In this document: positions 2,481-33,679 of the stretch, piece after piece
Layout of the letters: each line of letters starts with the position of its first letter
Numbering within the stretch: the first letter of the stretch is position 1
From: a virus
Lineage: Duplodnaviria; Heunggongvirae; Uroviricota; Caudoviricetes
Direction: 5' to 3' (one strand)
Virus record (IMG/VR): IMGVR_UViG_2645728091_000016
DNA length: 34,413 bases
Translations under genes and position numbers: made by a program
The notes under the pieces: generated by a model
Told to the model about the DNA's origin: nothing
The model's database searches: none
Seen by the model: only the letters and a program-made list of their open reading frames with translations

Positions 2481-2707
2481 TGGCTGATGCAATGGATCTC
2501 GTACAGCAGCGCGTTGAAGAAGAACGCCAACGCCATATCCGTGCTGCTCGTGCCAAAACGCCGGGCGTGTCCCGCGTGCTTTGCGTTGAGTGTGAAGCGC
2601 CAATTCCGCCAGCACGCCGCCGTGCCATTCCTGGAGTGCAGCTTTGCATTACCTGCCAGGAAATCGCAGAGCTGAAAGGCAAACATTACAACGGAGGTGC
2701 TGTATGA
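2480..2707 (+). CDS. TraR/DksA-family C4 zinc-finger protein
   Basis: CVECEAPIP...RRAIPGVQLCITCQ two CxxC pairs, resembling F-plasmid TraR; ATG overlaps upstream stop (TGATG). Confidence 0.7.
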   Translation: MADAMDLVQQRVEEERQRHIRAARAKTPGVSRVLCVECEAPIPPARRRAIPGVQLCITCQEIAELKGKHYNGGAV

Positions 2708-3561
2708 GCACCATCCTGAAATGGGCGGGTAATAAAACCGCCATTATGTCCGAACTGAAAAAATACCTTCCTGCTGGCCCGCGACTGGTTGAACCTTTCG
2801 CGGGTTCTTGTGCTGTGATGATGGCGACGGATTACCCCAGCTATCTGGTTGCGGATATTAATCCTGATTTAATCAACCTCTATAAAAAGATTGCCGCTGA
2901 TTGCGAAGCGTTTATATCTCGTGCCAAAGTTTTATTTGAGGAAGCAAACAGTGAGCTGGCTTATTACAACATAAGACAGGAGTTTAATTACTCAACTGAA
3001 ATTACTGATTTCATGAAGGCGATATATTTCCTATATCTCAATCGTCACGGTTACCGTGGTTTATGTCGCTATAACAAGAGCGGGTATTTCAACATTCCCT
3101 ACGGTAATTATAAAAATCCGTATTTCCCTGAAAAAGAAATTCGCGCATTTGCAGAGAAAGCCCAGCGGGCAACGTTTATCTGCGCGAGCTTTGATGAAAC
3201 GCTGGCGATGCTGCAGGTGGGGGATGTGGTGTATTGCGATCCGCCGTATGACGGTACGTTTTCCGGCTATCACACTGATGGTTTCACTGAAGATGACCAG
3301 TATCACCTGGCATCCATTCTTGAACATCGGTCATCAGAAGGACATCCGGTCATTGTTTCTAACAATGACACATCCCTGATTCGTTCGCTGTATCGCAATT
3401 TTACTCACCACTATATCAAGGCAAAACGCAGCATCGGCGTGTCAGCTGGCGAGGGTAAATCTGCAACAGAAATCATTGCTGTTTCCGGGCCGAGCTGCTG
3501 GTTGGGATTTGATCCTTCGCGTGGCGTGGATAGTTCTGCCGTGTACAGAGTGTGTGTATGA
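2704..3561 (+). CDS. dam: Dam-family DNA adenine-N6 methyltransferase
   Basis: [15 protein letters not shown] (SAM-binding motif I) and DPPY (motif IV); ATGA overlaps with both neighbours. Confidence 0.85.
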
Positions 3562-5972
3562 GTCATGACGATATGAACAATTGCAGCGGCTTTAACGAGG
3601 CCGCCGCAGCATTTTCATGGAACGGCTCGAAAAAGGCCATTAACCCTTATCTGGACCCGGCGGAAGTTGCGCCGGAGTCTGCACTTTCAAACCTGATCAC
3701 TCTGTACGCTGCCGATAACGAGCAGGAACAACTGCGCCGCGAGGCACTGAGTGAGCAGGTCTGGGAGCGTTATTTCTTTAATGAATCCCGTGATCCTGTC
3801 CAGCGCGAAATGGAGCAGGATAAGCTCATTAGCCGGGCAAAGCTGGCGCATGAGCAGCAGCGTTTTAATCCGGACATGGTCATTCTGGCGGACGTAAACG
3901 CCCAGCCTTCCCATATCAGCAAGCCGCTGATGCAACGTATTGAATACTTCAGCAGCCTGGGCAGGCCAAAGGCTTATTCCCGCTATTTGCGTGAGACGAT
4001 TAAGCCATGTCTGGAGCGACTGGATTGTGTACGTGACAGTCAGCTATCTGTTTCTTTCCGTTTTATGGCAAGCCATCAAGGGCTGGAGGGTCTGCTGATC
4101 CTGCCTGAAATGAGCCAGGATCAGGTGAAACGCCTGTCCACCCTGGTAGCAGCGCATATGAGCATGTGTCTTGAGGACGCTTGTGGTGATTTGTATGCCA
4201 CCGATGACGTTAAGCCAGAAGAAATCCGCAAGACATGGGAAAAGGTGGCAGCGGAAACCCTGCGTCTGGATGTTATCCCGCCTGCGTTTGAGAAACTTCG
4301 TCGGAAAAGAAACCGCCGCAAACCAGTGCCCTATGAACTCATCCCGGGTTCGCTGGCGCGTATGTTGTGTGCCGACTGGTGGTATCGGAAATTATGGAAG
4401 ATGCGTTGCGAATGGCGGGAAGAGCAGTTGCGTGCTGTCTGCCTGGTCAGCAAAAAAGCATCCCCCTATGTCAGCTATGAAGCCGTGATGCATAAACGTG
4501 AGCAGCGCCGTAAGTCGCTGGAGTTTTTTCGTTCTCATGAACTGGTGAACGAAGACGGCGACACGCTGGATATGGAAGATGTGGTAAACGCCAGCAGCAG
4601 CAACCCGGCGCATCGCCGCAATGAGATGATGGCCTGTGTTAAAGGTCTGGAGCTTATCGCGGAAATGCGCAGTGACTGTGCCGTTTTCTACACTATCACC
4701 TGTCCGTCGCGTTTCCATTCCACGCTCAATAACGGCAGACCAAACCCGACCTGGACAAACGCGACGGTAAGACAAAGTAGCGATTATCTGGTCGGCATGT
4801 TTGCTGCATTTCGTAAGGCTATGCATAAAGCCGAGTTGCGCTGGTATGGCGTGCGGGTAGCTGAGCCGCATCATGACGGTACTGTGCACTGGCATCTCAT
4901 GTGTTTCATGCGTAAAAAAGACCGCCGCGCCATCACTGCATTACTGCGTAAGTTTGCCATCCGTGAAGACCGCGAGGAGCTGGGCAATAACACGGGACCA
5001 CGCTTTAAGTCTGAGCTGATAAACCCGCGCAAAGGTACGCCAACAAGCTATATCGCGAAATACATCAGTAAGAACATTGACGGGCGTGGTCTGGCTGGGG
5101 AGATCAGCAAGGAAACGGGTAAATCCCTGCGTGATAACGCTGAATACGTTAATGCCTGGGCGTCTCTGCATCGTGTTCAGCAATTCCGCTTCTTTGGCAT
5201 TCCGGGGCGTCAGGCTTACCGTGAACTGCGATTGCTGGCTGGTCAGGCGGCAAGGCAACAGGGTGACAAAAAAGCAGGTGCGCCGGTACTGGATAACCCG
5301 CGCCTTGATGCCATTCTGGCTGCTGCTGATGCTGGTTGTTTTGCCACCTATATCATGAAGCAGGGTGGCGTACTGGTTCCCCGTAAATATCACCTCATCA
5401 GAACCGCTTATGAAATCAACGAAGAGCCAACCGCTTATGGCGATCACGGTATTCGTATTTATGGCATCTGGTCACCCATTGCAGAGGGCAAGATCTGCAC
5501 TCATGCGGTGAAGTGGAAAATGGTTCGTAAGGCCGTTGACGTTCAGGAGGCGGCTGCCGACCAGGGCGCTTGCGCCCCTTGGACTCGTGGCAATAACTGT
5601 CCCCTTGCTGAAAATTTGAACCAACAGGAGAAAGATAAATCAGCTGATGGGGACTCCAGAACGGACATTACCAGCATGGATGACAAGGAGTTGCACGATT
5701 ACCTGCACAGTATGAGCAAAAAAGAGCGCCGGGAACTGGCAGCAAGGTTACGCCTGGTGAAACCGAAACGGCGTAAAGACTACAAACAGCGAATTACAGA
5801 CCATCAGCGACTGCAGCTCGTGTATGAGCTGAAGTCCAGAGGATTTGATGGCAGCGAGAAAGAGGTCGATTTACTCCTTCGCGGAGGCAGTATTCCGTCA
5901 GGAGCAGGCCTGCGTATCTTCTATCGGAACCAGCGTTTGCAGGAAGATGATCAGTGGCGGAACCTGTATTAA
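3558..5972 (+). CDS. A: replication initiation endonuclease (P2 gpA-type rolling-circle initiator)
   Basis: About 805 aa from ATG 3558; HUH-type motif TVHWHLM; position after early operon. Confidence 0.9.
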
Positions 5973-6324: not shown

Positions 6325-6558
6325 ATGCGCATTGAAATAATGATCGATAAAGAGCAAAAAATTAGCCAGTCTACCCTGGACGCCCTTGAATCCGAGCTTT
6401 ACCGCAATCTGCGCCCCCTGTATCCCAAAGCGGTAATTCGTATCCGTAAAGGTAGCTCTAATGGTGTGGAACTGACCGGACTGCAACTGGACGAAGAAAG
6501 AAAACAAGTGATGAAAATTATGCAGAAGGTGTGGGAAGACGACAGCTGGCTGCATTAA
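6325..6558 (+). CDS. DinI-family protein
   Basis: MRIEIMIDK...LDALESEL...KIMQKVWEDDSWLH aligns along its length to E. coli DinI as recalled; ATG 6325 with GAGGTGA upstream. Confidence 0.8.
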   Translation: MRIEIMIDKEQKISQSTLDALESELYRNLRPLYPKAVIRIRKGSSNGVELTGLQLDEERKQVMKIMQKVWEDDSWLH

Positions 6559-6560
6559 GA

Positions 6561-6603
6561 AACGTTGCTGGCGTCTGAACTTGCTTCTGACGTCAGCAAC
6601 GTT
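6561..6603. terminator. strong stem-loop (15-bp stem with one G-U pair, 13-nt loop) between convergent DinI-like gene and orf177; putative bidirectional terminator
   Basis: AACGTTGCTGGCGTC...GACGTCAGCAACGTT inverted repeat seen directly; no clean U-tract. Confidence 0.35.
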
Positions 6604-6824
6604 GAACAACTAGTTTAGTGGGGCATTAGTCATGGGGTAAAATACAGTAACCATTATTTTCACTTCCGCTCAGATTTAACCGAACGTTAGTTTTGCTACG
6701 TATGATGGGCTGCAAATTACCTTTTGGGATTTGTGATAGATACGAAAATCCTATTAGATGCTTGTTAGACCGGAAGCGCCACTTCGAACGAAAAGTAATG
6801 GCCACTTATGCCGGTTTAAAAGCC

Positions 6825-7358
6825 TTAACCTTGTATAGTTATTTGAATATTTTCTTCATTAACACCAAAGTATAGGGCTAGCCCTGCTTTTGCCTCCTGA
6901 AGTGTTAACGGCTTAACTACATTTTCTTCTTCTTCTTCTTCGTACTCATCACCCGCTTGATCGACAATCGAATTAGTCGGGGTTAATTTGGGAAGAGCTT
7001 TAAATTCCAACTTGTCAGCCTCAATGCCAATGTCTTTGAGGTTGCGATAAGAAACGGGATTCCGATTGCCATCCCATTGTCCTGGGATGTCAATTTCAGC
7101 ATAAGAATTGATGTTTATGATCCAGCGTTTAGGGTTTTCTGGAGCCCTGCTTACTCCCGAGATTCGACCGATCATAAAAGCATGATGATGTTTTGCTTCT
7201 TGTGATCCCCAGTCCTTTCTCGAATTTTGTACACAAACTAAATATTCGTGCTTAGCTGCATGGCTGGCGTCAAGTCTCCATGCTTGGCTTCCCCCTGTGT
7301 TCAAAATCTCTGTTAAACCACGAGCAGTAAGTACAGTAATACAGTTGGTAGTAGCCAT
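6825..7358 (-). CDS. uncharacterised 177-aa accessory protein (orphan cargo gene; candidate anti-phage function)
   Basis: Clean ORF with ATG at 7358 and TAA stop; AT-rich; opposite strand to flanking phage genes; acidic EYEEEEEEN tract and HHH triplet; no family recognised by eye. Confidence 0.7.
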   Translation of the reverse strand: MATTNCITVLTARGLTEILNTGGSQAWRLDASHAAKHEYLVCVQNSRKDWGSQEAKHHHAFMIGRISGVSRAPENPKRWIININSYAEIDIPGQWDGNRNPVSYRNLKDIGIEADKLEFKALPKLTPTNSIVDQAGDEYEEEEEENVVKPLTLQEAKAGLALYFGVNEENIQITIQG

Positions 7359-7675
7359 TGAATTGTGACCCCGTCTTTTTTAGAAAAATACTGTTGATGA
7401 ATGTAGTTTACGTATTTTTTTATGGAGTAGTCAAGTTAGTATTATGCTCATTATTGGCTGTTTGTTGAGTGTTGTGAGTTGGTACTTTGTGTAGTACCTC
7501 TTGATTTATGATGATTAAATCTAAGTTATGACAAAGGGAGGCAGGGGGAACGCGCAGCGCAAGGTGGACAGGAGGCCATAAGGACTCACTTGAAGTAAGA
7601 AAAGATCGATAAAGCAACAATGCATGTCTATGCCGCATGAATTCGCATGATCGTTTGAGGATCGTTTTAGTTGAG

Positions 7676-7703
7676 GCCCGCCAGGAATGGCGGGCTTTTG
7701 TTT
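7676..7703 (+). terminator. rho-independent terminator GCCCGCC-AGGAAT-GGCGGGC followed by TTTTGTTT
   Basis: 7-bp GC stem plus T-tract read from sequence, inside the 480-bp non-coding stretch. Confidence 0.55.
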
Positions 7704-7744
7704 ATGTCATGCAAGTGCATGAAAACCACTACATAAAGCGGGCA

Positions 7745-7763
7745 GGCGTGGCGGGGATACGAG
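7745..7763. other. putative cos site (cohesive-end sequence) GGCGTGGCGGGGATACGAG
   Basis: First 13 nt match the 186 cohesive end as I recall it (GGCGTGGCGGGGAAAGCAT); GC-rich island in AT-rich DNA, upstream of the Q/P packaging genes. Confidence 0.45.
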
Positions 7764-7864
7764 CGCGCGAAATCCCTCTAATTTGAGCTAATCTGTTGAA
7801 AGTCATCCATTATTAATGATAAAAATTAGATGCGGATAATAAAAGTTAACAAAAGGTTGCAAAA

Positions 7865-8680
7865 TTGAACATTAATTTTGATGTTGTGATCAAGAGCGAT
7901 GATCATCAGGTTGATATGGATTATGGGTTGAAGACCCTGGCAGGAACTTCTAGAGTTGTTTCAACTATGGCTGAGGCAATTTTAAAAAAAGAGGTTTCGG
8001 AAAGAAGAACGAGTGTTAATGATATTAGGACACAGCTAAAGCAGAGTTTTAAAAGCTCTTATGGGCAAAATTTCTGTATTGAAGTTAATGATCCCGTTTT
8101 AAAAAGAAAATTAAAGAAAATGGGACACGATGTTTTTTGCGAAGTTATGTCCTATTATATTTCAGAGTCTATGTTTTTGGAGGCTAATAAATTAAGTTCG
8201 GCTGCTCAGGATGTTGTAAATGATCTTAATGATATAGAAGATAAATTGCTGGAGGTATTACGTCGAGGATTAATTGATATGCATAAAATAACTACAATGA
8301 GTAGTTTTAATGTCGAGCTAAATCATCACCCTCGTGGTAATAGGCAGCGAATTGCAACATTAACTCCGAAGACAGCTAAACATATTACAGAGACCGAAGA
8401 GGGTACTAGTGAATATCAGATTGATGTCATTTTTACTCGTTTTAATTCAATGACAGGTAACGGTCGGCTTATTGTAAGAAATGACGATAAAACAACCGCC
8501 TTTGGTCTTGCAAAAGGATTACGATTTGTTCCTTTGCACTTTAAAAAGAAAATTACTGAGAATCTTCATAAGAACAATGGATTAACTAAGCAAAATTGGC
8601 AATATGTAACGTTAACTGTACATGATTTAAAATTGGCTGGCGGGGAAGTAGTAAAATATTTTATTCATGAGATTTCATAG
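7865..8680 (+). CDS. uncharacterised soluble protein, gene A of a two-gene accessory operon (candidate defence sensor/enzyme)
   Basis: 271-aa ORF from TTG 7865 (AAGG 8 nt upstream); alternative in-frame starts GTG 7886 and ATG 7916; AT-rich; no motif recognised. Confidence 0.65.
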   Translation: MNINFDVVIKSDDHQVDMDYGLKTLAGTSRVVSTMAEAILKKEVSERRTSVNDIRTQLKQSFKSSYGQNFCIEVNDPVLKRKLKKMGHDVFCEVMSYYISESMFLEANKLSSAAQDVVNDLNDIEDKLLEVLRRGLIDMHKITTMSSFNVELNHHPRGNRQRIATLTPKTAKHITETEEGTSEYQIDVIFTRFNSMTGNGRLIVRNDDKTTAFGLAKGLRFVPLHFKKKITENLHKNNGLTKQNWQYVTLTVHDLKLAGGEVVKYFIHEIS

Positions 8681-9383
8681 AATGAAAAGAATAATATATA
8701 TTAGTTTTATCATTATAGTTGTAGTTATATCTATGTATTTTTACAACTTTAATACTGGAAAAGGGTTATCTAAAAGTACTGAGGTTTGGGGACAGTTCGG
8801 AGATTATTTGGGTGGGGTTGTTAATCCCATTCTTACTTTTTTATCAATTGTGTTATTGATTAAATCAATAGATTTACAACGTGATGCTAATGCAAGTATC
8901 ATTAATGAAAATAAGAGGCAGGAAAAGCTCGATTATCTGAAGAATTTTGAAATGCGATTTTATAGTTTGATCGACGCACAACGCACTGCATTCGAAAAGT
9001 TTACATTATTAAATGTTGATGGGGTAAATATAAAAGGAGTTGAAGCTGTAAATAAACTTGAGGATTTTATTTTTAACATGAAGAATGAAGGTAAGAGTAA
9101 GGAGGTTGTTTCTAAATTTATTACAGATTGCGATGTGTCTGAATCAATCTACTCTTCAGTACGGCGCTTTTATTTATTAGTCCGTCTCATAGATGAAAAG
9201 CTGGAACGTGAAGAGCGGGACGAATATTATGAGATACTGATTAATATGACTGATTTTCCGTTGGTTAGATTAATTGTTCTTGCATTATGTGTCTATGATT
9301 GGGATATAATAAAGTATATTGACTCTAGTTCTGTTTTAGCGAAGGATGAGTTGGTACAATATCGTGCATATTTTCAATTGTGA
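8667..9383 (+). CDS. uncharacterised membrane protein with two N-terminal TM helices plus about 170-aa soluble domain, gene B of the operon (candidate abortive-infection effector)
   Basis: ATG 8667 (or in-frame ATG 8682) overlapping gene A stop; hydrophobic segments IIYISFIIIVVVISMYFYNF and VVNPILTFLSIVLLIKSI. Confidence 0.7.
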   Translation: MRFHRMKRIIYISFIIIVVVISMYFYNFNTGKGLSKSTEVWGQFGDYLGGVVNPILTFLSIVLLIKSIDLQRDANASIINENKRQEKLDYLKNFEMRFYSLIDAQRTAFEKFTLLNVDGVNIKGVEAVNKLEDFIFNMKNEGKSKEVVSKFITDCDVSESIYSSVRRFYLLVRLIDEKLEREERDEYYEILINMTDFPLVRLIVLALCVYDWDIIKYIDSSSVLAKDELVQYRAYFQL

Positions 9384-9452
9384 TTTTAATAAGTTCATTG
9401 TTCGAATATGAAGAGGTATAAGGGGAATCTCCCCCCTTATACTTATCTATAG

Positions 9453-10481
9453 TTATGCCAATTGATAATCTATAAAATTAACAACTGTCGCGCCAAGCCA
9501 TTTATTAATCTCTTTTATGCGAATTTGTAATGGAAGAAGTTCATTTATCACAAAAACCTTACTGGCCTTCTCCACATCACCAAACCCGCCAACATTGCTA
9601 GGCATAATTCCCATCATCTGAGGCGGCACGCGGTGCGCTGCCATCATGTCATCGCGACTTACGTTCTTTATGTTCAGAAACTCATCCTTTGCCGCCACTT
9701 CTGACAGCGGGATGATCTGAAGCCCGTCCTTTTTGCCGTTAGGCGAGTACATAAACAGGTTGCGGAAGTTGCCCGGACCTTTGGCGCTTTTCATCGCGTT
9801 GCGGAGGTTGTTCACATCCTCCTGGTTCTGAGCGGCATCGGTCATGTACATTATGAATCCTGCATGGCTGCCATTAATATAATATTTGCGTCGGAACAGC
9901 GTGGCGGACTCGTTGAGCAGGGCTGACGGAATGGCAGAAAGATAACCGGGCAGGCCGTAGATCTCCTGGTTGATATCGGGTTCCATCAGATGAAAGATGC
10001 TGCCTTTCGTGAACTGATACGGCTGGGTTGTCATACCGTATTGCACAAACCAGTAGGTATCCAGGTCTAACCCGCGTCGGGTGTATTTTGCCAGAGCAGG
10101 CTCAAGGGCGATAACTTCACCGAACCGGTTCGTGCGTTTCTCTAGGTAGGCGTTACCAAATACCAGATAGTCCTGCACAAAACGTGAAAAAGCCTGCTGG
10201 CTGAGCAGCGGGTGAGGGATATAGGTGCTGGTCAGAATGTTGCACTTTACTGCAATCGGTGAGCTGTGGTGTACGGCGGCGCGGAATGTTCGCGCCAGGC
10301 CTTCGAAACTCACAGGCGGCTCATACCAGCGGTCCATCTGTACGCATTCCACATAGTCCAGCAGTTCGCGACGGTCCAGAACAGGAACGGGATCGCCGAA
10401 GCTGAATGCTTCGGCTGAAGTCTGGCTTTTATGCTGGATCTGATTCATCGCCGCTGCGCGGTTTTTCTTACTCTTTCCCAT
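9453..10481 (-). CDS. Q: portal protein (P2 gpQ)
   Basis: 342 aa from ATG 10481 (track uses TTG 10484); position and size match P2 Q; overlaps P stop. Confidence 0.9.
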   Translation of the reverse strand: MGKSKKNRAAAMNQIQHKSQTSAEAFSFGDPVPVLDRRELLDYVECVQMDRWYEPPVSFEGLARTFRAAVHHSSPIAVKCNILTSTYIPHPLLSQQAFSRFVQDYLVFGNAYLEKRTNRFGEVIALEPALAKYTRRGLDLDTYWFVQYGMTTQPYQFTKGSIFHLMEPDINQEIYGLPGYLSAIPSALLNESATLFRRKYYINGSHAGFIMYMTDAAQNQEDVNNLRNAMKSAKGPGNFRNLFMYSPNGKKDGLQIIPLSEVAAKDEFLNIKNVSRDDMMAAHRVPPQMMGIMPSNVGGFGDVEKASKVFVINELLPLQIRIKEINKWLGATVVNFIDYQLA

Positions 10482-12247
10482 CAAAAAATCTCCACAATAT
10501 TGCTGGTATTGGCGGATTCGCCCTGCAGCGGTTCGTTAAACAGTGCGTGCATCGTTGCCCAGGCCAGATCGGCGTGGCTGGCTTCTTCGCTGCGGCTGGC
10601 TTCATAGGTCGGGCGGTTGCCACTGGCAGTGGTAGCGCGACGGATTGCCATAAATGACTGCGCAATGTCGGTGTGCCCGGCGTCAAACTCCAGGCGGCGG
10701 TGGCTGATAATGTCGTAGGCCTTGAGTACCAGGGCGTTTTTAACGTTGGGGTTGTAGACAAACTCCCGGACGGCAGGAAAAAACGCTTTCACGTTCTCGT
10801 AAACCCCGTGACCGACGCCGGTCGAGTCGATGCCGATATAGGTCACGTTATACTGTTCGGTCAGTTTTTTGATGGCGTCAGCCTGGGCACGAAAGTCCAT
10901 TCCGCGCCACTGGTGACGCTCAAGAATGCGGAACTTGCCGCCCGGCACGGCTGGCGGAGCCACCACCACGCATCCGGCGCTGTCGCCGTTTTGCGTACCT
11001 TTTGCCGGGTCATAACCGATCCACACTTCGCGCCAGCCAAACGGGCGCAGCGCCAGTGCATGAAAGTCGGTCCTGACTTCCCAGCTGTCCACCATGCACG
11101 CCTGCAGCTCGCTGAGCGGGAACACGGACGCGAGATCGTCCACGAACTCACACATCAGCAGGTTCTGGTATTCGTCCGGGCTGTACTCCATGCGCAACTG
11201 GTCGAGGTCGAACAGGTTACAGCCGCCGCGCACCGCATCTTCCACAGTGACTATCTGGCGGTACTGCCCGTCTGCGCACAGCAGGCCGGGGGCCAGATTG
11301 CTGTGGGACAGGTCGATGTCCACCTTATCGGCTTTGTTGCGCCCTCGGTTGAACAGCGCACCGGACCAGAACGGATAAGCACTGTGTGTCAGGCTGGATG
11401 GCGTGGAAAAATAGGTTTGTCGCCATTTTTTGTGAATAGCCATACCGGAAGCCACTTTGCGCAGCTCCTGGAATTTCGGTATCCAGAAATATTCATCCAG
11501 ATACAGGTTGCCGTGGTAACTCTGGGCCGTGCGGGCATTGGTGCCGAGGAAGTACAGCGTGGCCCCGTTAGGAAGCACCATCGGATCGCCTTTCAGCTCC
11601 ACCTCCACTTCTTTGGCGAAGTCGATGATGTACTGCTTAAAGACGTGGGCCTGAGCCTTGCTGGCGGAAAGGAAAATCTGGTTGCGCCCGGTTAGCAGGG
11701 CGTCAATCAGGGCTTCACGGGCAAAATAGAAGGTCGCGCCGATCTGGCGTGACTTCAGCAGGTTGCGGATGCGGTTGGTTTTTCCGGCTTCCCACCAGTG
11801 GCGCTGGTAGTTGAACATGGAGGAATGGAAGATTTCTTCCAGCTTCTCAATCTGTTCATCGGTGAAAACGTTCTTTTCCGGCTGACGGCGCGGGCCTTTG
11901 TTGCGGTTGGCGACGTTAGGGTTTAAGTCGGCTTCGTTGCCGCCATTGTTAAACTTGCCGATCCGCGCATGGCGCTCCGACTGGCGCGCCAGCAGGTCAA
12001 TCTCTTTGAAATCTTTCCCTTCTTTGTGCTCCTTCATAATGAGCTGGCAGTAGCGTGCGGCGGTGGTGAGCTGCATCTGATCCAGCGGCCCATAGTCACC
12101 CCACTTGTCGCGTTTTTTCCAGCTGTGAACGGTTGCAACTTTCTCGCCCAGCATTTCAGCAATGCGGGCTACGCGGTATCCCTGAAAGTACAGCAGCATG
12201 GCCTGCCGACGGGGATCGAGATCTGCGGGTGTCAGTGTGGTGTTCAT
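10481..12247 (-). CDS. P: terminase large (ATPase) subunit (P2 gpP)
   Basis: 588 aa; N-terminus close to P2 gpP as recalled; divergent from O. Confidence 0.9.
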   Translation of the reverse strand: MNTTLTPADLDPRRQAMLLYFQGYRVARIAEMLGEKVATVHSWKKRDKWGDYGPLDQMQLTTAARYCQLIMKEHKEGKDFKEIDLLARQSERHARIGKFNNGGNEADLNPNVANRNKGPRRQPEKNVFTDEQIEKLEEIFHSSMFNYQRHWWEAGKTNRIRNLLKSRQIGATFYFAREALIDALLTGRNQIFLSASKAQAHVFKQYIIDFAKEVEVELKGDPMVLPNGATLYFLGTNARTAQSYHGNLYLDEYFWIPKFQELRKVASGMAIHKKWRQTYFSTPSSLTHSAYPFWSGALFNRGRNKADKVDIDLSHSNLAPGLLCADGQYRQIVTVEDAVRGGCNLFDLDQLRMEYSPDEYQNLLMCEFVDDLASVFPLSELQACMVDSWEVRTDFHALALRPFGWREVWIGYDPAKGTQNGDSAGCVVVAPPAVPGGKFRILERHQWRGMDFRAQADAIKKLTEQYNVTYIGIDSTGVGHGVYENVKAFFPAVREFVYNPNVKNALVLKAYDIISHRRLEFDAGHTDIAQSFMAIRRATTASGNRPTYEASRSEEASHADLAWATMHALFNEPLQGESANTSNIVEIF

Positions 12248-20092: not shown

Positions 20093-20690
20093 TCTGCTGC
20101 CACCGGGTTCAACACCACTGGAGCGCCGACTGGCGCAAACCTGCAGCGGGATTTCTGATCTGCAGGTGCCGCTTCGTGACTTGTGGAATCCGGCAACCTG
20201 TCCGGTCAGTTTCCTGCCTTATCTCGCCTGGGCGTTCTCTGTGGATCGCTGGGACGAGGGCTGGACAGAAAGCGTCAAGCGCCAGGTGGTGAAGGATGCT
20301 TTTTATATTCATCAGCATAAAGGGACCACCAGTGCCGTGCGGCGGGTGGTGGAGCCGTTCGGATTCCTGATCCGCATTATTGAGTGGTGGCAGACCGGAG
20401 AAACACCGGGCACGTTTCGCCTGGATATCGGCGTGCAGGACCAGGGCATCACTGAAGATACCTATCTGGAACTTGAGCGACTGATAAGCGATGCCAAACC
20501 ATGTAGCCGCCACATGATCGGCATGTCCATCAATCTGCAGACCAGCGGCCCGCATTGGGTGGGAGCCGCCAGCTATCTTGGCGAAGAAATCACGATCTAT
20601 CCGTATATCAACGAAACGATTATTTCCGGTGGCACCGCGCATGAAGGCGGGGCGGTCCATGTTATTGACACAATGAGAGTGAATCCATGA
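20085..20690 (+). CDS. I: baseplate/tail protein (P2 gpI)
   Basis: 201 aa; synteny. Confidence 0.85.
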   Translation: MNSLLPPGSTPLERRLAQTCSGISDLQVPLRDLWNPATCPVSFLPYLAWAFSVDRWDEGWTESVKRQVVKDAFYIHQHKGTTSAVRRVVEPFGFLIRIIEWWQTGETPGTFRLDIGVQDQGITEDTYLELERLISDAKPCSRHMIGMSINLQTSGPHWVGAASYLGEEITIYPYINETIISGGTAHEGGAVHVIDTMRVNP

Positions 20691-22075
20691 GCACAAAATT
20701 TTATACCCTGCTGACGGATATTGGCGCGGCGAAACTTGCCAGCGCCGCCGCGCTCGGTGTGCCGCTAAAAATTACCCATATGGCGGTGGGCGATGGCAGT
20801 GGAGTATTGCCAACGCCGGACGCAAAGCAGACGGCACTGGTAAATGAGAAACGCCGGGCTGCGCTGAATATGCTTTATATCGACCCGCAGAACAGCAGCC
20901 AGATTATTGCCGAACAGGTGATCCCTGAAAACGAGGGCGGTTGGTGGATACGTGAAGTGGGCTTGTTTGATGAGTCTGGGGCATTGATTGCCGTGGGCAA
21001 CTGCCCGGAAAGCTATAAGCCGCAACTGGCTGAAGGTAGCGGGCGCACTCAGACCGTGCGCATGGTGCTGATTACCAGCAGCACGGACAATATCATCCTG
21101 AAAATCGACCCTGCTGTAGTGCTGGCAACCCGCAAGTATGTGGATGACAAGGCACTGGAGCTGAAGGTGTACGCGGATGATCAGATGGCAAAACATCTTG
21201 CCGCACCGGACCCGCATTCACAGTACGCGCCAAAAGCCAGCCCGACATTTACCGGAACCCCCAAAGCGCCAACGCCAGCGGCGGGGAATAATACCACGCA
21301 GGTTGCGACCACTGCGTTTGTACAGGCGGCACTGACGGCCCTTATTAATGGTGCGCCAGCCACGCTGGACACGCTGAAAGAAATAGCCGCAGCCATTAAC
21401 AATGATCCGAATTTCAGTACCACCATTAACAATGCGCTGGCACTAAAAGCACCGTTGTCGAGTCCGGCACTCACCGGAACGCCAACAGCCCCCACGGCGG
21501 CGCAGTCGATCAACAATACACAGATTGCCACTACGGCTTTTGTGAAATCGGCGATTGCAGGAATGGTGGGTTCTGCACCTGCTGCACTGGATACACTGAA
21601 CGAACTGGCGGCGGCACTGGGGAATGATCCGAACTTTGCCACGACAATGCTTAATGCGCTGGCAGGTAAACAACCGCTGGACAATACGCTTACCAATTTG
21701 AGTGGAAAGGATGTAGCTGGTCTTCTCACATACCTTGGTTTGGGAGAAGCCAGATATGTCATTCAGCGAGGAGCTAATGCCAATGGTGCATGGATACGCT
21801 GGTCAGATGGTGCAATAGAAGTCTTTGGGACGGGTGGTTCTAATAATAATGGACTGGCTAAAGTCGTTTATCCTATTGTGCTTAAGCTTTCACGTTTTAT
21901 CAGCATAGCGGAAAGAATAGGAACGGATTATGGGGGCACATCTAATAACGTTCACGTTTCAATGATCGTGGATGACCAGGTCACTAATACCGGTTTTTAT
22001 GTCCGCTGCCAGATGTACGACGGAACACCATCAACAAGTGCTTTTTCTTGGAGGGTTTATTGTGCGCCTGTTTAA
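20687..22075 (+). CDS. H: tail fibre protein (P2 gpH-type); C-terminal about 113 aa lie inside the invertible segment
   Basis: 462 aa; internal tandem repeats; ATGA overlap with I. Confidence 0.9.
   Translation: MSTKFYTLLTDIGAAKLASAAALGVPLKITHMAVGDGSGVLPTPDAKQTALVNEKRRAALNMLYIDPQNSSQIIAEQVIPENEGGWWIREVGLFDESGALIAVGNCPESYKPQLAEGSGRTQTVRMVLITSSTDNIILKIDPAVVLATRKYVDDKALELKVYADDQMAKHLAAPDPHSQYAPKASPTFTGTPKAPTPAAGNNTTQVATTAFVQAALTALINGAPATLDTLKEIAAAINNDPNFSTTINNALALKAPLSSPALTGTPTAPTAAQSINNTQIATTAFVKSAIAGMVGSAPAALDTLNELAAALGNDPNFATTMLNALAGKQPLDNTLTNLSGKDVAGLLTYLGLGEARYVIQRGANANGAWIRWSDGAIEVFGTGGSNNNGLAKVVYPIVLKLSRFISIAERIGTDYGGTSNNVHVSMIVDDQVTNTGFYVRCQMYDGTPSTSAFSWRVYCAPV
21239..21682 (+). repeat. 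tandem 2 x 222-bp (74-aa) repeat inside the tail-fibre shaft
   Basis: Two protein repeats beginning SPTFTGTPKAPT... and SPALTGTPTAPT... with shared ...TTAFV...DTL.E.AAA...DPNF.TT..NALA motifs. Confidence 0.6.
21723..21748. other. left crossover site (hix/gix-like 26-bp site TTCTCACATACCTTGGTTTGGGAGAA) inside H
   Basis: About 19/26 match to hixL as recalled; inner half plus 9 further bp (21735-21755) repeated in inverted orientation at 23168-23188. Confidence 0.6.
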
Positions 22076-22259: not shown

Positions 22260-22494
22260 CCCCCGGCGCGGTGCTGGTATCTGCTTCCATCACCGCGGCG
22301 ATATTACCAACATCATATTCAGTCATTTCCGGTTCCGGTGGTGCTATAAACTCTCCGTCAGAATAGAACCAACCGACGCCTGCATCTATATGATCAATAT
22401 TTATAATTTCGCAATTAGAGAATAAATCACCCTCTCCATCCCAGATAATAATATTTTTCACCACGCCATGTTCAATCAGAGCAAAATTACTCAT
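22228..22494 (-). CDS. small protein paired with the alternative fibre tip; putative tail-fibre assembly chaperone
   Basis: 88 aa; ATG overlaps stop of the alternative fibre cassette (ATGA). Confidence 0.5.
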   Translation of the reverse strand: MSNFALIEHGVVKNIIIWDGEGDLFSNCEIINIDHIDAGVGWFYSDGEFIAPPEPEMTEYDVGNIAAVMEADTSTAPGVIWPVPPEMV

Positions 22495-23186
22495 CAGGCA
22501 TACTCCTCAACAATAACTATTCCCGGGGCACCGTCACCTCCCGATTGAGCCTCACTTCCAGCAGGTGCGCAGGCTCCGCCTCCGCCAGCACCAAAGCCCT
22601 CAGCTTTACCACCACCACGTCCGCTGAATGATGAAGAACTTGCACCACCTATACCGCCTGAACCTAATGGTGTATCCCCCCCGGTACCACCTGCTACAGC
22701 TTTAACAGAGATAACCATTGCTCCTGGTGTTTTTGCACTACAGCGAAATGCTCTTAGTACAGTCCCGGACGATGTCGGACTGGCACCCCATGAAATACCC
22801 TGAATATATGATGTGTTTGCAGATGCTCCCCCCGCGCCACCGCCTGTACCACCAGGTGCAGTTATCATGGAACCGAAATAAGTTGTGCCACCTTCACTAC
22901 CTGAATTTCTTCCGGCTCCCCCCCCTTTACCTGCAGCACCGATAATAACGTTGACTTCGAAATCATTATCAACCTCGAAAAATGCTTCAATAAATGCGCC
23001 GCTCAATCCAGCTCCGGCTGTTGCCTGTTGATTTTCTGTTGTTTCAGGAACCCCACCGCCGCCGCCACCGCCACCAGAGGCAATGACCCTTATCTTTTTT
23101 GTCCCTGGTGTTGGGATATATTTTCCAGAGCTTTTAAAAATATTCGTGTTTAACAAACGACCAGAGAATCTGGCTTCTCCCAAACC
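22494..23186 (-). CDS. promoterless alternative tail-fibre C-terminal cassette (Gly-rich), expressed only after inversion fuses it to the constant part of H
   Basis: Open frame on minus strand beginning at the right crossover site with GLGEARF; contains SGGGGGGGGV run and many GGxGG repeats. Confidence 0.65.
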   Translation of the reverse strand, partial: GLGEARFSGRLLNTNIFKSSGKYIPTPGTKKIRVIASGGGGGGGGVPETTENQQATAGAGLSGAFIEAFFEVDNDFEVNVIIGAAGKGGGAGRNSGSEGGTTYFGSMITAPGGTGGGAGGASANTSYIQGISWGASPTSSGTVLRAFRCSAKTPGAMVISVKAVAGGTGGDTPLGSGGIGGASSSSFSGRGGGKAEGFGAGGGGACAPAGSEAQSGGDGAPGIVIVEEYA

Positions 23187-23200
23187 AACGTTTAAGAAAA
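23175..23200. other. right crossover site (hix/gix-like, inverted relative to left site)
   Basis: TTCTCCCAAACCAACGTTTAAGAAAA; inner half is the reverse complement of the left site inner half. Confidence 0.6.
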
Positions 23201-23255
23201 TGCAGAGGTAACAGCTAACTGGCATCATCTCCGGTTTTTATTCAGGGGGATGATC

Positions 23256-23822
23256 ATGCTTATTGGCTATGTACGCGTGTCAACAAATGACCAGAACACC
23301 GATTTGCAACGTAATGCACTGAACTGCGCGGGATGTGAGCAGATTTTTGAGGACAAAATCAGTGGCACTAAGTCCGACAGACCGGGGCTGAAAAAACTAC
23401 TCAGGACACTATCGGCAGGAGACACGCTGGTTGTCTGGAAGCTGGACAGGTTGGGGCGCAGTATGCGGCATCTTGTTACGCTGATAGAAGAGTTGCGCCA
23501 GCGTGGTGTGAATTTCAGAAGCCTGACTGACAGTATTGATACCAGTACCCCAATGGGCCGTTTCTTTTTTCATGTCATGGGTGCCCTGGCTGAAATGGAA
23601 CGCGAACTGATAGTTGAACGTACCAGGGCAGGGCTGGCTGCAGCTCGTGCCAAAGGCAGAGTAGGTGGACGCCGTCCTAAGTTGACCACCGAACAGTGGG
23701 CACAGATTGGGCGTTTACTCGAGGCCGGAGAATCAATACAGCGTATTGCACTGATTTTTGATGTAGGCGTTTCTACCATTTATAGAAAATTTCCGGCAAA
23801 TAAGATCAATGAATCCCCCTGA
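23256..23822 (+). CDS. serine-recombinase DNA invertase (Hin/Gin/Cin/Pin family)
   Basis: MLIGYVRVST...DQ...LVVWKLDRLGRS catalytic-domain motifs and C-terminal HTH; ATG 23256 after GGGGGA. Confidence 0.9.
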   Translation: MLIGYVRVSTNDQNTDLQRNALNCAGCEQIFEDKISGTKSDRPGLKKLLRTLSAGDTLVVWKLDRLGRSMRHLVTLIEELRQRGVNFRSLTDSIDTSTPMGRFFFHVMGALAEMERELIVERTRAGLAAARAKGRVGGRRPKLTTEQWAQIGRLLEAGESIQRIALIFDVGVSTIYRKFPANKINESP

Positions 23823-31346: not shown

Positions 31347-33032
31347 TTATCCTAATCCTGGCCATACCATGACGATGATTGTCCCTGCCAGCGTCAGCAG
31401 GACGTTGGCGATTGCATAGGTGCCCGCATAGCCCAGCGCCGGGATGTTACTGCGAGCTGTATCACTGATGATCTCCATTGCCGGCGCGCAGGTGCGTGCG
31501 CCCATCATTGCGCCGAACAACAGTGCGCGGTTCATTCGCAATACATAAGCACCGAACAAGAAACAGATAACCACTGGCACAAGACTGACAATCAATCCGG
31601 CAATCAACATCTGACCGCCAATCGCGCCCAGGCCGTTATTAATACCGCTACCGGCGCTCAGACCAACGCCTGCCATAAACACCATTAAGCCGAACTCTTT
31701 CACCATGCTTAATGCACCCTGCGGAATGTAACCGAAGGTCGGGTGGTTAGCGCGCATAAATCCCAGCATAATTCCGGCGAATAACAACCCGGCAGCGTTC
31801 CCCATGCCGAAACTGAATGTGCTGAACTGGAAGGTGATCATCCCGATCATCAGCCCAATAACAAAGAAGGCGCAGAATGCCAGCAAGTCAGTGACCTGGC
31901 TGTGAATCGAGATAAAGCCGATGCGATCGGCGATGGTTTTTACGCGACGGGCATCGCCGCTGACTTGTAAAACGTCACCTTTGTTAAGCACGACGTTGTC
32001 ATCTATCGGCATCTCAATCTGGCTACGAATGACGCGGTTAAGGAAGCAACCGTGATCGGTCAACTTCAGTTGTGCGAGACGTTTGCCAACGGCGTTATGG
32101 TTTTTAACGACCACTTCTTCAGTGACGATACGCATGTCGAGAAGGTCACGATCGAAAACTTCTTTGCCGTTACGGAAGCTGGGATCGAGTCGTGCGTGGG
32201 CGTCGGGATAGCCTACCAACGCTATTTCATCGCCCATTTGTAGCACAGCATCACCGTCTGGATTTGCCAGAATCCCGTTACGTCGAATACGTTCAATGTA
32301 GCAGCCAGTTTGTCGATAAATACCCAGTTCACGCAGATTTTTGCCGTCGGTCCAGGCCACCAGCTCCGGGCCGACGCGGTAGGCGCGGATCACCGGTAAA
32401 TAAACCTTACGGTTGGCATCAGTGTCCAGGCCACGTTCGCGGGCGATTTGCTGGGCGCTGGTCTGTAAGTCCTGATGCTGCAATTTCGGCAAGTAACGCG
32501 CACCAACAATCAAACTCACCAGACCGATTAAATAGGTTAAGGCATACCCGAGGCTCAGATTATCCAGTGCCAGTGAGAGCTGCCTGCTTTCCATGCCGGA
32601 ATGACGCAGTGTATCGCCAGCACCGACCAGAACCGGTGTCGACGTCATAGAGCCAGCTAACATACCGGCCGTCAGGCCAATATCCCAGCCAAACAGCTTA
32701 CCTAACCCTAAGGCGATCACCAGCGCACTGCCAACCATCACCAGTGCTAACATTAGGTAATTTTTCCCATCGCGAAAAAAAATGGAAAAAAAGTTCGGTC
32801 CGGCTTCGACCCCGACGCAGAAAATAAACAGCATAAAGCCAAGATTAAGCGCGTCGGTGTTAATGCTGAAATGTTGTTGGCCTAATAACAGCGATACGAC
32901 TAAAACGCCAATGGAATTACCCAGTTGGATCGAACCAAGTCGTAATTTCCCGAGACATAGCCCAAGCGCGAGGACCACAAATAATAACAGAATGTAATTC
33001 CCATTTAACAATTCGGCGACGTTTATATTCAC
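31347..33032 (-). CDS. ybjL: putative AAE-family transporter YbjL (two TrkA-C/RCK_C domains)
   Basis: 561 aa; sequence recognised as E. coli YbjL. Confidence 0.9.
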
Positions 33033-33301
33033 GGAGGCTAACTTCTTGTTTACTAGTAAGCTGTTGAAAGAAATGGTAATTTACGATAATGTTTTTTACC
33101 AGAATTCAGGGCGCAGATTCATTCAGCGCACCTAAACGATAGTAAAGTAACAATATATTTTACTAGTGTAATCACATTAGGTATCAACGGCTATATGAAT
33201 TGCGTTGGCCTATATTAGCATGGAATGCGAAGCGGCTTTATCTTACTGAACGCCACACTGGCGAAAAATGTGTTCGATAGACGCAGTGTCAGGAGGAACG
33301 A

Positions 33302-33679
33302 GTGAAACATAAACAACGTTGGGCGGGGGCAATCTGCTGTTTTGTCCTCTTCATTGTGGTGTGTCTTTTTCTGGCGACGCACATGAAAGGCGCTTTTCGG
33401 GCTGCCGGACATCCTGAAATCGGTTTGCTATTTTTCATTCTTCCTGGTGCAGTTGCCAGCTTCTTTTCACATCGTAGAGAAGTCCTGAAACCTCTGTTTG
33501 GCGCAATGCTGGCGGCACCCTGTTCGATGCTCATTATGCGGCTGTTTTTTTCACCGACGCGCTCATTCTGGCAAGAGTTGGCATGGTTATTAAGTGCGGT
33601 GTTCTGGTGTGCGCTGGGGGCATTGTGTTTCTTATTTATCAGTAGTTTGTTTAAACCACAGCACAGAAAAAATCAATAA
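33302..33679 (+). CDS. ybjM: inner membrane protein YbjM
   Basis: 125 aa, GTG start; recognised as E. coli YbjM; synteny. Confidence 0.8.
   Translation: MKHKQRWAGAICCFVLFIVVCLFLATHMKGAFRAAGHPEIGLLFFILPGAVASFFSHRREVLKPLFGAMLAAPCSMLIMRLFFSPTRSFWQELAWLLSAVFWCALGALCFLFISSLFKPQHRKNQ

Follow-up and report, generated by a model that had tools for sequence, protein, structure and literature searches.

Cargo genes on both sides of a putative cos site in the accessory interval of a 186/Fels-2-like prophage

Genes and features of the interval between the DinI/Tum-like and portal genes

The 34,413-nucleotide stretch of IMG/VR record IMGVR_UViG_2645728091_000016 (the window) belongs to the P2 family (Peduoviridae) and is of the 186/Fels-2 type; we analyzed its interval 6559-9452, which lies between the DinI/Tum-like gene and the portal gene and carries three accessory genes, here called c1, c2 and c3, arranged around a putative cos site. 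The G+C content of this interval is 36.8%, against a mean of 53.9% (standard deviation 3.2, minimum 45.9%) in 2894-bp segments elsewhere on the stretch, bearing out the sharp drop described in an earlier note made from the letters and open reading frames (ORFs) of this DNA. The stretch encodes 186-type CI and CII, a Dam-type methylase, the replication endonuclease gpA (3552-5972, upstream of the interval), a small conserved ORF and the DinI/Tum-like gene (6328-6558, plus strand; Pfam DinI, E = 6.8e-23). The latter forms the conserved left anchor of the interval and is found at 97-100% identity in most related loci, while the portal gene (gpQ homologue; 9453-10484, minus strand) forms the conserved right anchor and adjoins the terminase gene (10481-12247, minus strand). 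The order gpA, interval, portal found in the window is also that of the RefSeq annotations in relatives.

Eighty IMG/VR loci with a portal gene at least 92% identical to that of the window were fetched, and 69 of them, in which the DinI gene, a single cos motif and the portal gene could all be placed, were usable; these are the relatives referred to throughout. The boundaries within the interval were fixed by aligning the window to L004, a relative with nothing inserted on the left (its DinI-to-cos distance of 203 bp is the minimum), and by conservation profiles anchored on cos. Conservation reaches 80-100% from about -125 to +25 of cos and is lost abruptly at +26, right after CGCGCG(C); about 65 bp after the DinI stop are conserved as well, and nothing is conserved beside the stop codon on the portal side. 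The interval opens with a conserved post-DinI stub (6559-6629, plus strand), delimited by alignment to L004, and continues with a left cassette (6630-7620), absent from L004, which occupies the tin/old-side slot (TO region) and consists of c1 with its 3' and 5' non-coding DNA. Next come a conserved cos core of 149 bp (7621-7769, plus strand), made up of about 125 bp left of the cut site, the 19-mer described below and CGCGCG, and a right cassette (7770-9452, plus strand), which fills the slot from cos to the portal stop with a promoter region, the c2-c3 operon and a terminator of its own. The G+C fraction is 0.407 in the left cassette, 0.53 in the cos core and 0.326 in the right cassette.

The c1 gene (6825-7358, minus strand) encodes 177 amino acids (aa), c2 (7865-8680, plus strand) 271 aa and c3 (8682-9383, plus strand) 233 aa; the c3 start at 8682 was chosen because RefSeq annotates the homologue as 702 nt, and an alternative ATG at 8667 would give 238 aa. 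The start codon of c3 lies 1 nt after the c2 stop, and c2 and c3 therefore form an operon. As the earlier note had proposed, these are three real genes in two transcription units: homologues of c1, c2 and c3, dozens of each, occur in several genera, and the c1 and c2-c3 units are divergent, both being read away from cos. A 59-aa ORF on the minus strand downstream of c1 (6626-6805) was considered as a partner gene and rejected, as it bears no resemblance to the small gene downstream of the c1 homologue in Comamonas and is absent from the RefSeq annotation. The stretch between the two units, 7380-7864, which the note had regarded as a 480-bp non-coding core, indeed contains mechanical ORFs only (72 and 49 aa); it did not hold up as a single element, being a composite of the c1 upstream region (7359-7620), the cos core (7621-7769) and the c2 upstream region (7770-7864).

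Hairpins mark several of these parts. The one in the post-DinI stub (6561-6603; 15-bp stem, -27.3 kcal/mol, z = -6.4) stands directly after the DinI stop and is kept in relatives; with no T-run after it, it may not be a simple intrinsic terminator. The plus-strand terminator announced for 7676-7703 was recovered as an intrinsic-terminator-like hairpin at 7673-7698 (11 pairs and a T-run, -20.8 kcal/mol, z = -3.8), located 47-72 bp upstream of cos within the conserved core. It too is kept in relatives, and its pairing persists in L004, where one C-G stem position becomes a U-G wobble. The 69 bp that separate the c3 stop from the portal stop hold nothing cos-like and a hairpin with a 12-bp stem (9414-9444), which is likely a bidirectional terminator replacing tQ of P2. 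A sigma-70 promoter scan returned sites no more frequently than in shuffled sequence, and no promoter is claimed.

The GC-rich cos-like motif mentioned in the earlier note proved to be a putative 19-nt cohesive-end sequence, GGCGTGGCGGGGATACGAG (7745-7763, plus strand), assigned by homology. This lineage-specific 19-mer, first spotted by eye and then by pattern search, is the sole match in the window, where 0.02 would be expected by chance; the exact P2 cos sequence has no match in the window with up to three mismatches allowed. The records of P2 and 186 open with GGCGAGGCGGGGAAAGCAC and GGCGTGGCGGGGAAAGCAT, respectively, each annotated as cohesive ends, and the first 13 of the 19 nt are common to GGCGTGGCGGGGATACGAG and the 186 cos. 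Directly before the 19-mer, AAGCGGGC is present both in the window and in P2, and directly after it GCGCG is common to the window, P2, 186 and P4. Homology links the window motif to the sequences annotated as cos in P2, 186 and P4, the Salmonella phage SEN8 record opens (position 1) with an identical 19-mer labelled putative cos, and the motif is conserved together with about 125 bp on its left in all 69 loci. The assignment of 7745-7763 as cos is thus well supported by homology. From this assignment, which draws on the P2/186/P4 homology, the identity with SEN8, the conservation among relatives and the uniqueness of the motif, it follows that cargo would lie on both sides of cos. Packaged DNA should therefore carry c2-c3 near one end and c1 near the other, in line with the earlier expectation of accessory genes at both termini of the packaged genome.

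The left and right slots assort independently

Cargo on both sides of cos is normal in the present lineage, since cos and the portal stop are 524 bp or more apart in each of the 69 relatives (median 1694 bp); more than 400 bp are present on both sides of cos in 46 of them. The arrangement is the rule here, not an oddity. By contrast, among 79 loci of the P2 lineage (from L103-L182; portal at least 99% identical to P2 gpQ), 77 have 159-172 bp from cos to portal and carry all their cargo on the gpA side, where P2 itself has tin and old. The two other P2-lineage loci, with 1442 and 1878 bp from cos to portal, represent rare insertions in the portal-side slot.

Clustering of the slot DNA of the 69 loci yielded 21 left types and 46 right types in 61 distinct combinations, with the left slot empty in 23 loci and many cassettes paired with several partners. 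The c2-c3 cassette of the window is also present in L004 and in E. coli PM4-5, both with an empty left slot, and in E. coli 82.0312, with a DUF2971 gene on the left. Reciprocally, the c1 cassette recurs at about 99% identity in L047 and in about eight complete E. coli genomes next to other right cassettes, for example one with HipA-domain and HIRAN-domain genes. The exact left/right combination of the window was found in none of 5,426 complete E. coli genomes. These results show that the left and right slots assort independently and that gene content is not conserved among related phages, as the description of the interval as variable cargo had implied. In E. coli 82.0312 (L085), an IS421 transposase gene (6384-7496) is inserted between the c2-c3 cassette and the portal, indicating that insertion sequences occasionally land in the slot.

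The two slots also differ in how their genes are oriented: all 105 right-slot ORFs are read from cos towards the portal, whereas left-slot ORFs are mixed (38 plus, 26 minus). On the right, homology breaks off 6-7 nt past the 19-mer and returns at the portal stop, the cassette carrying its own hairpin. Such a hairpin of at least 8 bp beside the portal stop is present in 69% of the distinct right cassettes, compared with 7% of control segments. The domains encoded in the right slots of relatives comprise GmrSD, retron reverse transcriptase (RT), AAA_21/AAA_15, AIPR, PIN_12, Cap4 nuclease, DprA and SieB, together with TIR, ThsB-TIR, HIRAN, KAP NTPase and UvrD-type helicases. Left-slot proteins of relatives include DarT with Macro, KAP NTPase and DUF4145, and also LysR, ADH, GNAT and an IS110 transposase. 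No ORF family is common to the left and right slots of the present lineage's loci, and none is common to P2-lineage and present-lineage cargo. Cassette boundaries, low cassette G+C, a cassette-borne terminator at the portal end and known defence domains in the slots of relatives are all shown by these comparisons.

Cargo proteins and what the interval may be for

The AlphaFold model of c2 is confident (pLDDT 88.7), and c2 is predicted to be soluble, its N-terminal domain resembling DUF7946 and its C-terminal OB fold resembling DUF7947. Its own scores, 25.3 bits against DUF7946 and 13.6 bits against DUF7947, stay under the Pfam cut-off of 27 for each. Among ten distant members of the family defined by the c2 profile, DUF7946 was matched at E <= 0.01 in nine, above the cut-off in seven, and DUF7947 at E <= 0.01 in six, above the cut-off in three, with the same domain order. 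The family is rare, with about 175 clusters at 50% identity among 1.84 billion representative proteins, and a Foldseek search of c2 against viral models returned uncharacterised proteins only. The c3 protein displays two N-terminal hydrophobic, transmembrane (TM) helices by hydropathy and an invariant WGQFGDYxGGxxNP motif. Compared by hhalign with proteins bearing PF16872 (putAbiC), it was aligned over 184 columns with a probability of 99.7% and E = 1.2e-26. Judging from this homology, detected at the profile-profile level and via bridging sequences, c3 is a distant relative of putAbiC. An Rfam match to fstAT (Fst antitoxin small RNA) inside c3 (8788-8880) scored 31 bits against a gathering score of 72 and is probably due to chance.

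The two genes travel together. At 40-47% identity, c2 and c3 are adjacent in a 186-like E. coli prophage, in the same right slot and 114 bp after cos, in a two-gene islet beside valS in Chromobacterium, and in an Aeromonas prophage. NCBIfam and Protein Data Bank (PDB) sequence searches gave nothing useful for the cargo, and a literature search for DUF7946, DUF7947, putAbiC and the RefSeq accessions of the cargo proteins found no mention of them.

For c1, the AlphaFold model is likewise confident (pLDDT 83.7) and predicts an N-terminal PUA-like (EVE/YTH/ASCH) fold followed by a conserved C-terminal helix, that is, a reader fold without an effector domain. Homologues of c1 are found at prophage edges and in a conjugative tra operon. 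The latter homologue (42% identical, 215 aa; L101/L102, 5001-5648) is flanked by TraC-family and TraU genes in a conjugative element of Pseudomonas. This would be an unusual setting for a defence gene and hints at a role in protecting or escorting transferred DNA.

Taken together, these data make it highly probable that the interval is an accessory-gene hotspot next to cos in a P2-family phage of the Fels-2/186 type, with two independent cassette slots around the 149-bp cos core. The left slot, which begins at the DinI terminator and ends at cos minus 125, would correspond to the P2 tin/old side and contains c1; the right slot, which begins at cos plus 26 and ends at the portal stop codon, would correspond to the site of the retron insertions of Dodd and Egan and of P4 gop-beta-cII, and holds c2-c3. 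Everything the terminase needs would lie between -125 and +25 of cos, leaving the flanking DNA free to vary. Related phages would exchange cassettes through homologous recombination within the flanks that are conserved, namely DinI, the cos core and the portal gene. The linear DNA of the virion would start about 100 bp before c2 and end about 390 bp after the c1 start codon. Within such a hotspot, c1 may act as a stand-alone reader of modified nucleic acid, in defence or counter-defence, and c2-c3 may constitute an abortive-infection-type module, in which c2, soluble and ending in an OB fold, would detect a nucleic acid or protein of the phage and would govern c3, an AbiC-like protein of the inner membrane. 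The pair is a plausible abortive-infection candidate, c2 being the presumed sensor or regulator and c3 the presumed membrane effector.

Several observations weigh against this account. Searched by itself against the Pfam putAbiC model, c3 stayed below the cut-off and gave no match, and none of c1, c2 and c3 matched the PADLOC 2.0 models. In Table S5A of Rousset et al. 2022 (PMC9122126), c2 and c3 appear only as 'hypothetical + hypothetical', and the accessible part of that work gives no sign of an assay of the pair. The c1 homologues in the tra operon fit counter-defence or another role as well as they fit defence. The position of cos is assigned by homology, and that of SEN8, as its genome announcement indicates, was likewise named during annotation and not through end mapping. 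An HNH endonuclease gene in the cos-to-portal slot of SEN8 (L087, 1183-2142) lies on the opposite strand and is an exception to the orientation rule. Finally, the idea of slot-specific gene pools is weakened because the P2 lineage and the present lineage also share zero families, so that the lack of families common to the two slots may reflect sampling of a very large pool.

The alternative that survives best is that the cargo does not serve anti-phage defence and has some other role in lysogenic conversion or counter-defence: c1 might protect the element by masking or reading modified DNA, and c2-c3 might be a membrane-acting superinfection-exclusion or addiction (toxin-antitoxin) pair. The lack of PADLOC matches, the reader fold of c1 with no effector attached, the location of its homologues at prophage edges and among tra genes, and the LysR, ADH and GNAT genes in the left slots of relatives all agree with such a role, as does the presence of partition systems in about a quarter of P2 hotspots and of toxins in about 2%, given in the accessible part of PMC9122126. 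We nevertheless consider it possible rather than probable, for what relatives carry in the right slot consists overwhelmingly of known defence domains, the family to which c3 is homologous takes its name from abortive infection, and c2-c3 moves as a compact two-gene module between unrelated contexts.

A more far-reaching reading is also possible. In it, c2-c3 would be a new two-gene abortive-infection system, a DUF7946/DUF7947 OB-fold sensor gating an AbiC-like membrane effector, and the gpA-gpQ hotspot of the P2 family would consist of two mechanistically separate slots. The portal-side one, whose junction is 7 nt away from the cohesive end, would then truly match the hotspot of satellite P4 and might be exchanged via a DNA end made by the terminase. 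This combination of claims is tentative, and we consider it possible rather than probable.

A dedicated site-specific mechanism, integron-like or driven by the terminase-made cos end, might insert the cassettes in place of homologous recombination in the flanks. The right junction is very sharp, falling 6-7 nt past the cohesive end in 69 of 69 loci and likewise in P4, right-slot ORFs share one orientation, and the recombination processes at such hotspots are still to be elucidated according to the accessible text of PMC13586616. Such a mechanism is nonetheless improbable: the cassettes have no conserved sequence at their portal-side end and no repeat in common, no recombinase is encoded in 6559-9452, identical cassettes recur with different partners, as expected of crossovers in the 149-bp cos core and flanking genes, and selection keeping a minimal cos intact explains the sharp junction equally well. 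An integron-like cassette array in particular was ruled out, as end repeats and a recombinase are both missing within the interval. Least probable of all is that the motif at 7745-7763 is a mere conserved relic or regulatory site and that the working cos lies beside the portal as in P2, with the island all on one side: the 168-177 bp from cos to portal stop in P2 and 186 and the fact that the cos of the present lineage is assigned from sequence would speak for it, but the DNA between the c3 and portal stops holds just its hairpin, no second cos-like motif occurs in the window even at three mismatches, the DNA adjacent to the portal stop is unconserved among relatives whereas the motif and its 125-bp left flank are invariant, and P4, which is packaged by the P2 terminase, shows the same order of cos, CGCGCGC and cargo.

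On the hotspot reading the locus is an ordinary one, at a textbook position for P2-family phages, and its cargo candidates sit exactly where validated defence systems sit: the compact, rare c2-c3 module and the stand-alone PUA-like reader c1. The comparison also sharpens the anatomy of the hotspot, in which two independent slots flank a minimal conserved cos (about 150 bp), cargo on the portal side keeps strictly to one orientation and each cassette brings a terminator. This anatomy could help explain the fast gene exchange at hotspots, the process described in the accessible text of PMC13586616 as still to be elucidated. If the cos assignment is correct, about 1-3.5 kb of foreign DNA would be tolerated within 7 nt of the cohesive end without disturbing packaging, which would be useful for engineering P2/P4-based vectors.

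Elsewhere on the window, a D12-class N6-adenine DNA methyltransferase gene (2644-3561), annotated as 'DNA adenine methylase' in relatives, lies directly upstream of gpA and overlaps it. A Hin/Gin-type serine invertase gene (23250-23822; Resolvase and HTH_7) adjoins a minus-strand glycine-rich ORF (22494-23228), and this pair (22494-23822), which the tail-fibre gene (20687-22075) directly precedes, has the appearance of a host-range switch acting by tail-fibre inversion. Host genes resembling ybjL (a permease with Asp-Al_Ex and TrkA_C) and ybjM follow the gpD tail gene at 31347-33679, which puts the right end of the prophage and its attachment site at about 30.8-31.3 kb.

Relation to known systems

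AbiC acts as a single gene. The c3 protein resembles putAbiC and lactococcal AbiC at its N-terminus, where the two TM helices and the WGQFGDYxGG motif recur, and over part of the cytoplasmic domain. It differs in being shorter (233 aa versus about 280-350 aa), in always occurring with an upstream DUF7946/DUF7947 partner and in failing the Pfam and PADLOC models.

The architecture of the locus is already known, since both the gpA-gpQ hotspot and the slot from cos to gpQ have been described before (PMC9122126, PMC5694545). In the accessible parts of the articles cited here, to which the comparisons below are limited, the gpA-gpQ interval has been published as a hotspot for defence genes lying 'adjacent to the cos site' (PMC9122126; PMC9519451; PMC13586616; bioRxiv 10.1101/2024.10.15.618418). 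The interval in the window resembles that of PMC9122126 in its position between replication endonuclease and portal beside cos, its hypervariability, its AT-richness and the defence systems in relatives. It differs in that the hotspot is presented as one (PMC9122126, PMC9519451, PMC13586616), whereas here cos splits it into two independently assorting slots, and the cargo of the window is not among the systems reported as assayed in the accessible part of PMC9122126.

On the portal side, PMC5694545 cites an insertion site between cos and the portal terminator in 186-related prophages with retrons Ec67/Ec86 (Dodd and Egan 1996) and the same insertion slot in phiCTX (Nakayama 1999), and describes four ORFs of one orientation between cosL and the gpQ homologue of phiRSY1. 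As in the site of Dodd and Egan, foreign DNA replaces everything between cos and the portal-side terminator, and retron RTs occur in the slot of relatives. The uniform orientation of the phiRSY1 genes is matched by that of the right-slot genes of the window, and SEN8 also has two genes between its annotated cos and the portal. What differs from the Dodd and Egan and phiCTX slots is the cargo, which in the window is c2-c3. On the other side, c1 is comparable to the P2 TO region in lying on the replication-gene side and in being read, like old and tin, away from cos towards the replication genes; it is unrelated to Tin and Old, and the present lineage has DinI/Tum and orf98 where P2 has orf91.

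In P4, psu is followed by about 160 bp, the 19-mer, CGCGCGC and then the AT-rich gop-beta-cII cargo. The present lineage shares with this hotspot the roughly 160 bp of conserved DNA, the 19-mer, CGCGCG(C) and AT-rich cargo reading away from cos, and in position its portal-side slot corresponds to the P4 hotspot. By contrast, P4 is a satellite, the far side of its hotspot is formed by an integrase gene and not by the portal gene, and it draws on another cargo pool. Relative to the accessible portions of the published accounts, the refinements offered by the present lineage are that the two slots assort independently, that the right junction falls 6-7 nt beyond the cohesive end, that portal-side cargo keeps strictly to one orientation and that cassettes bring their own terminators.

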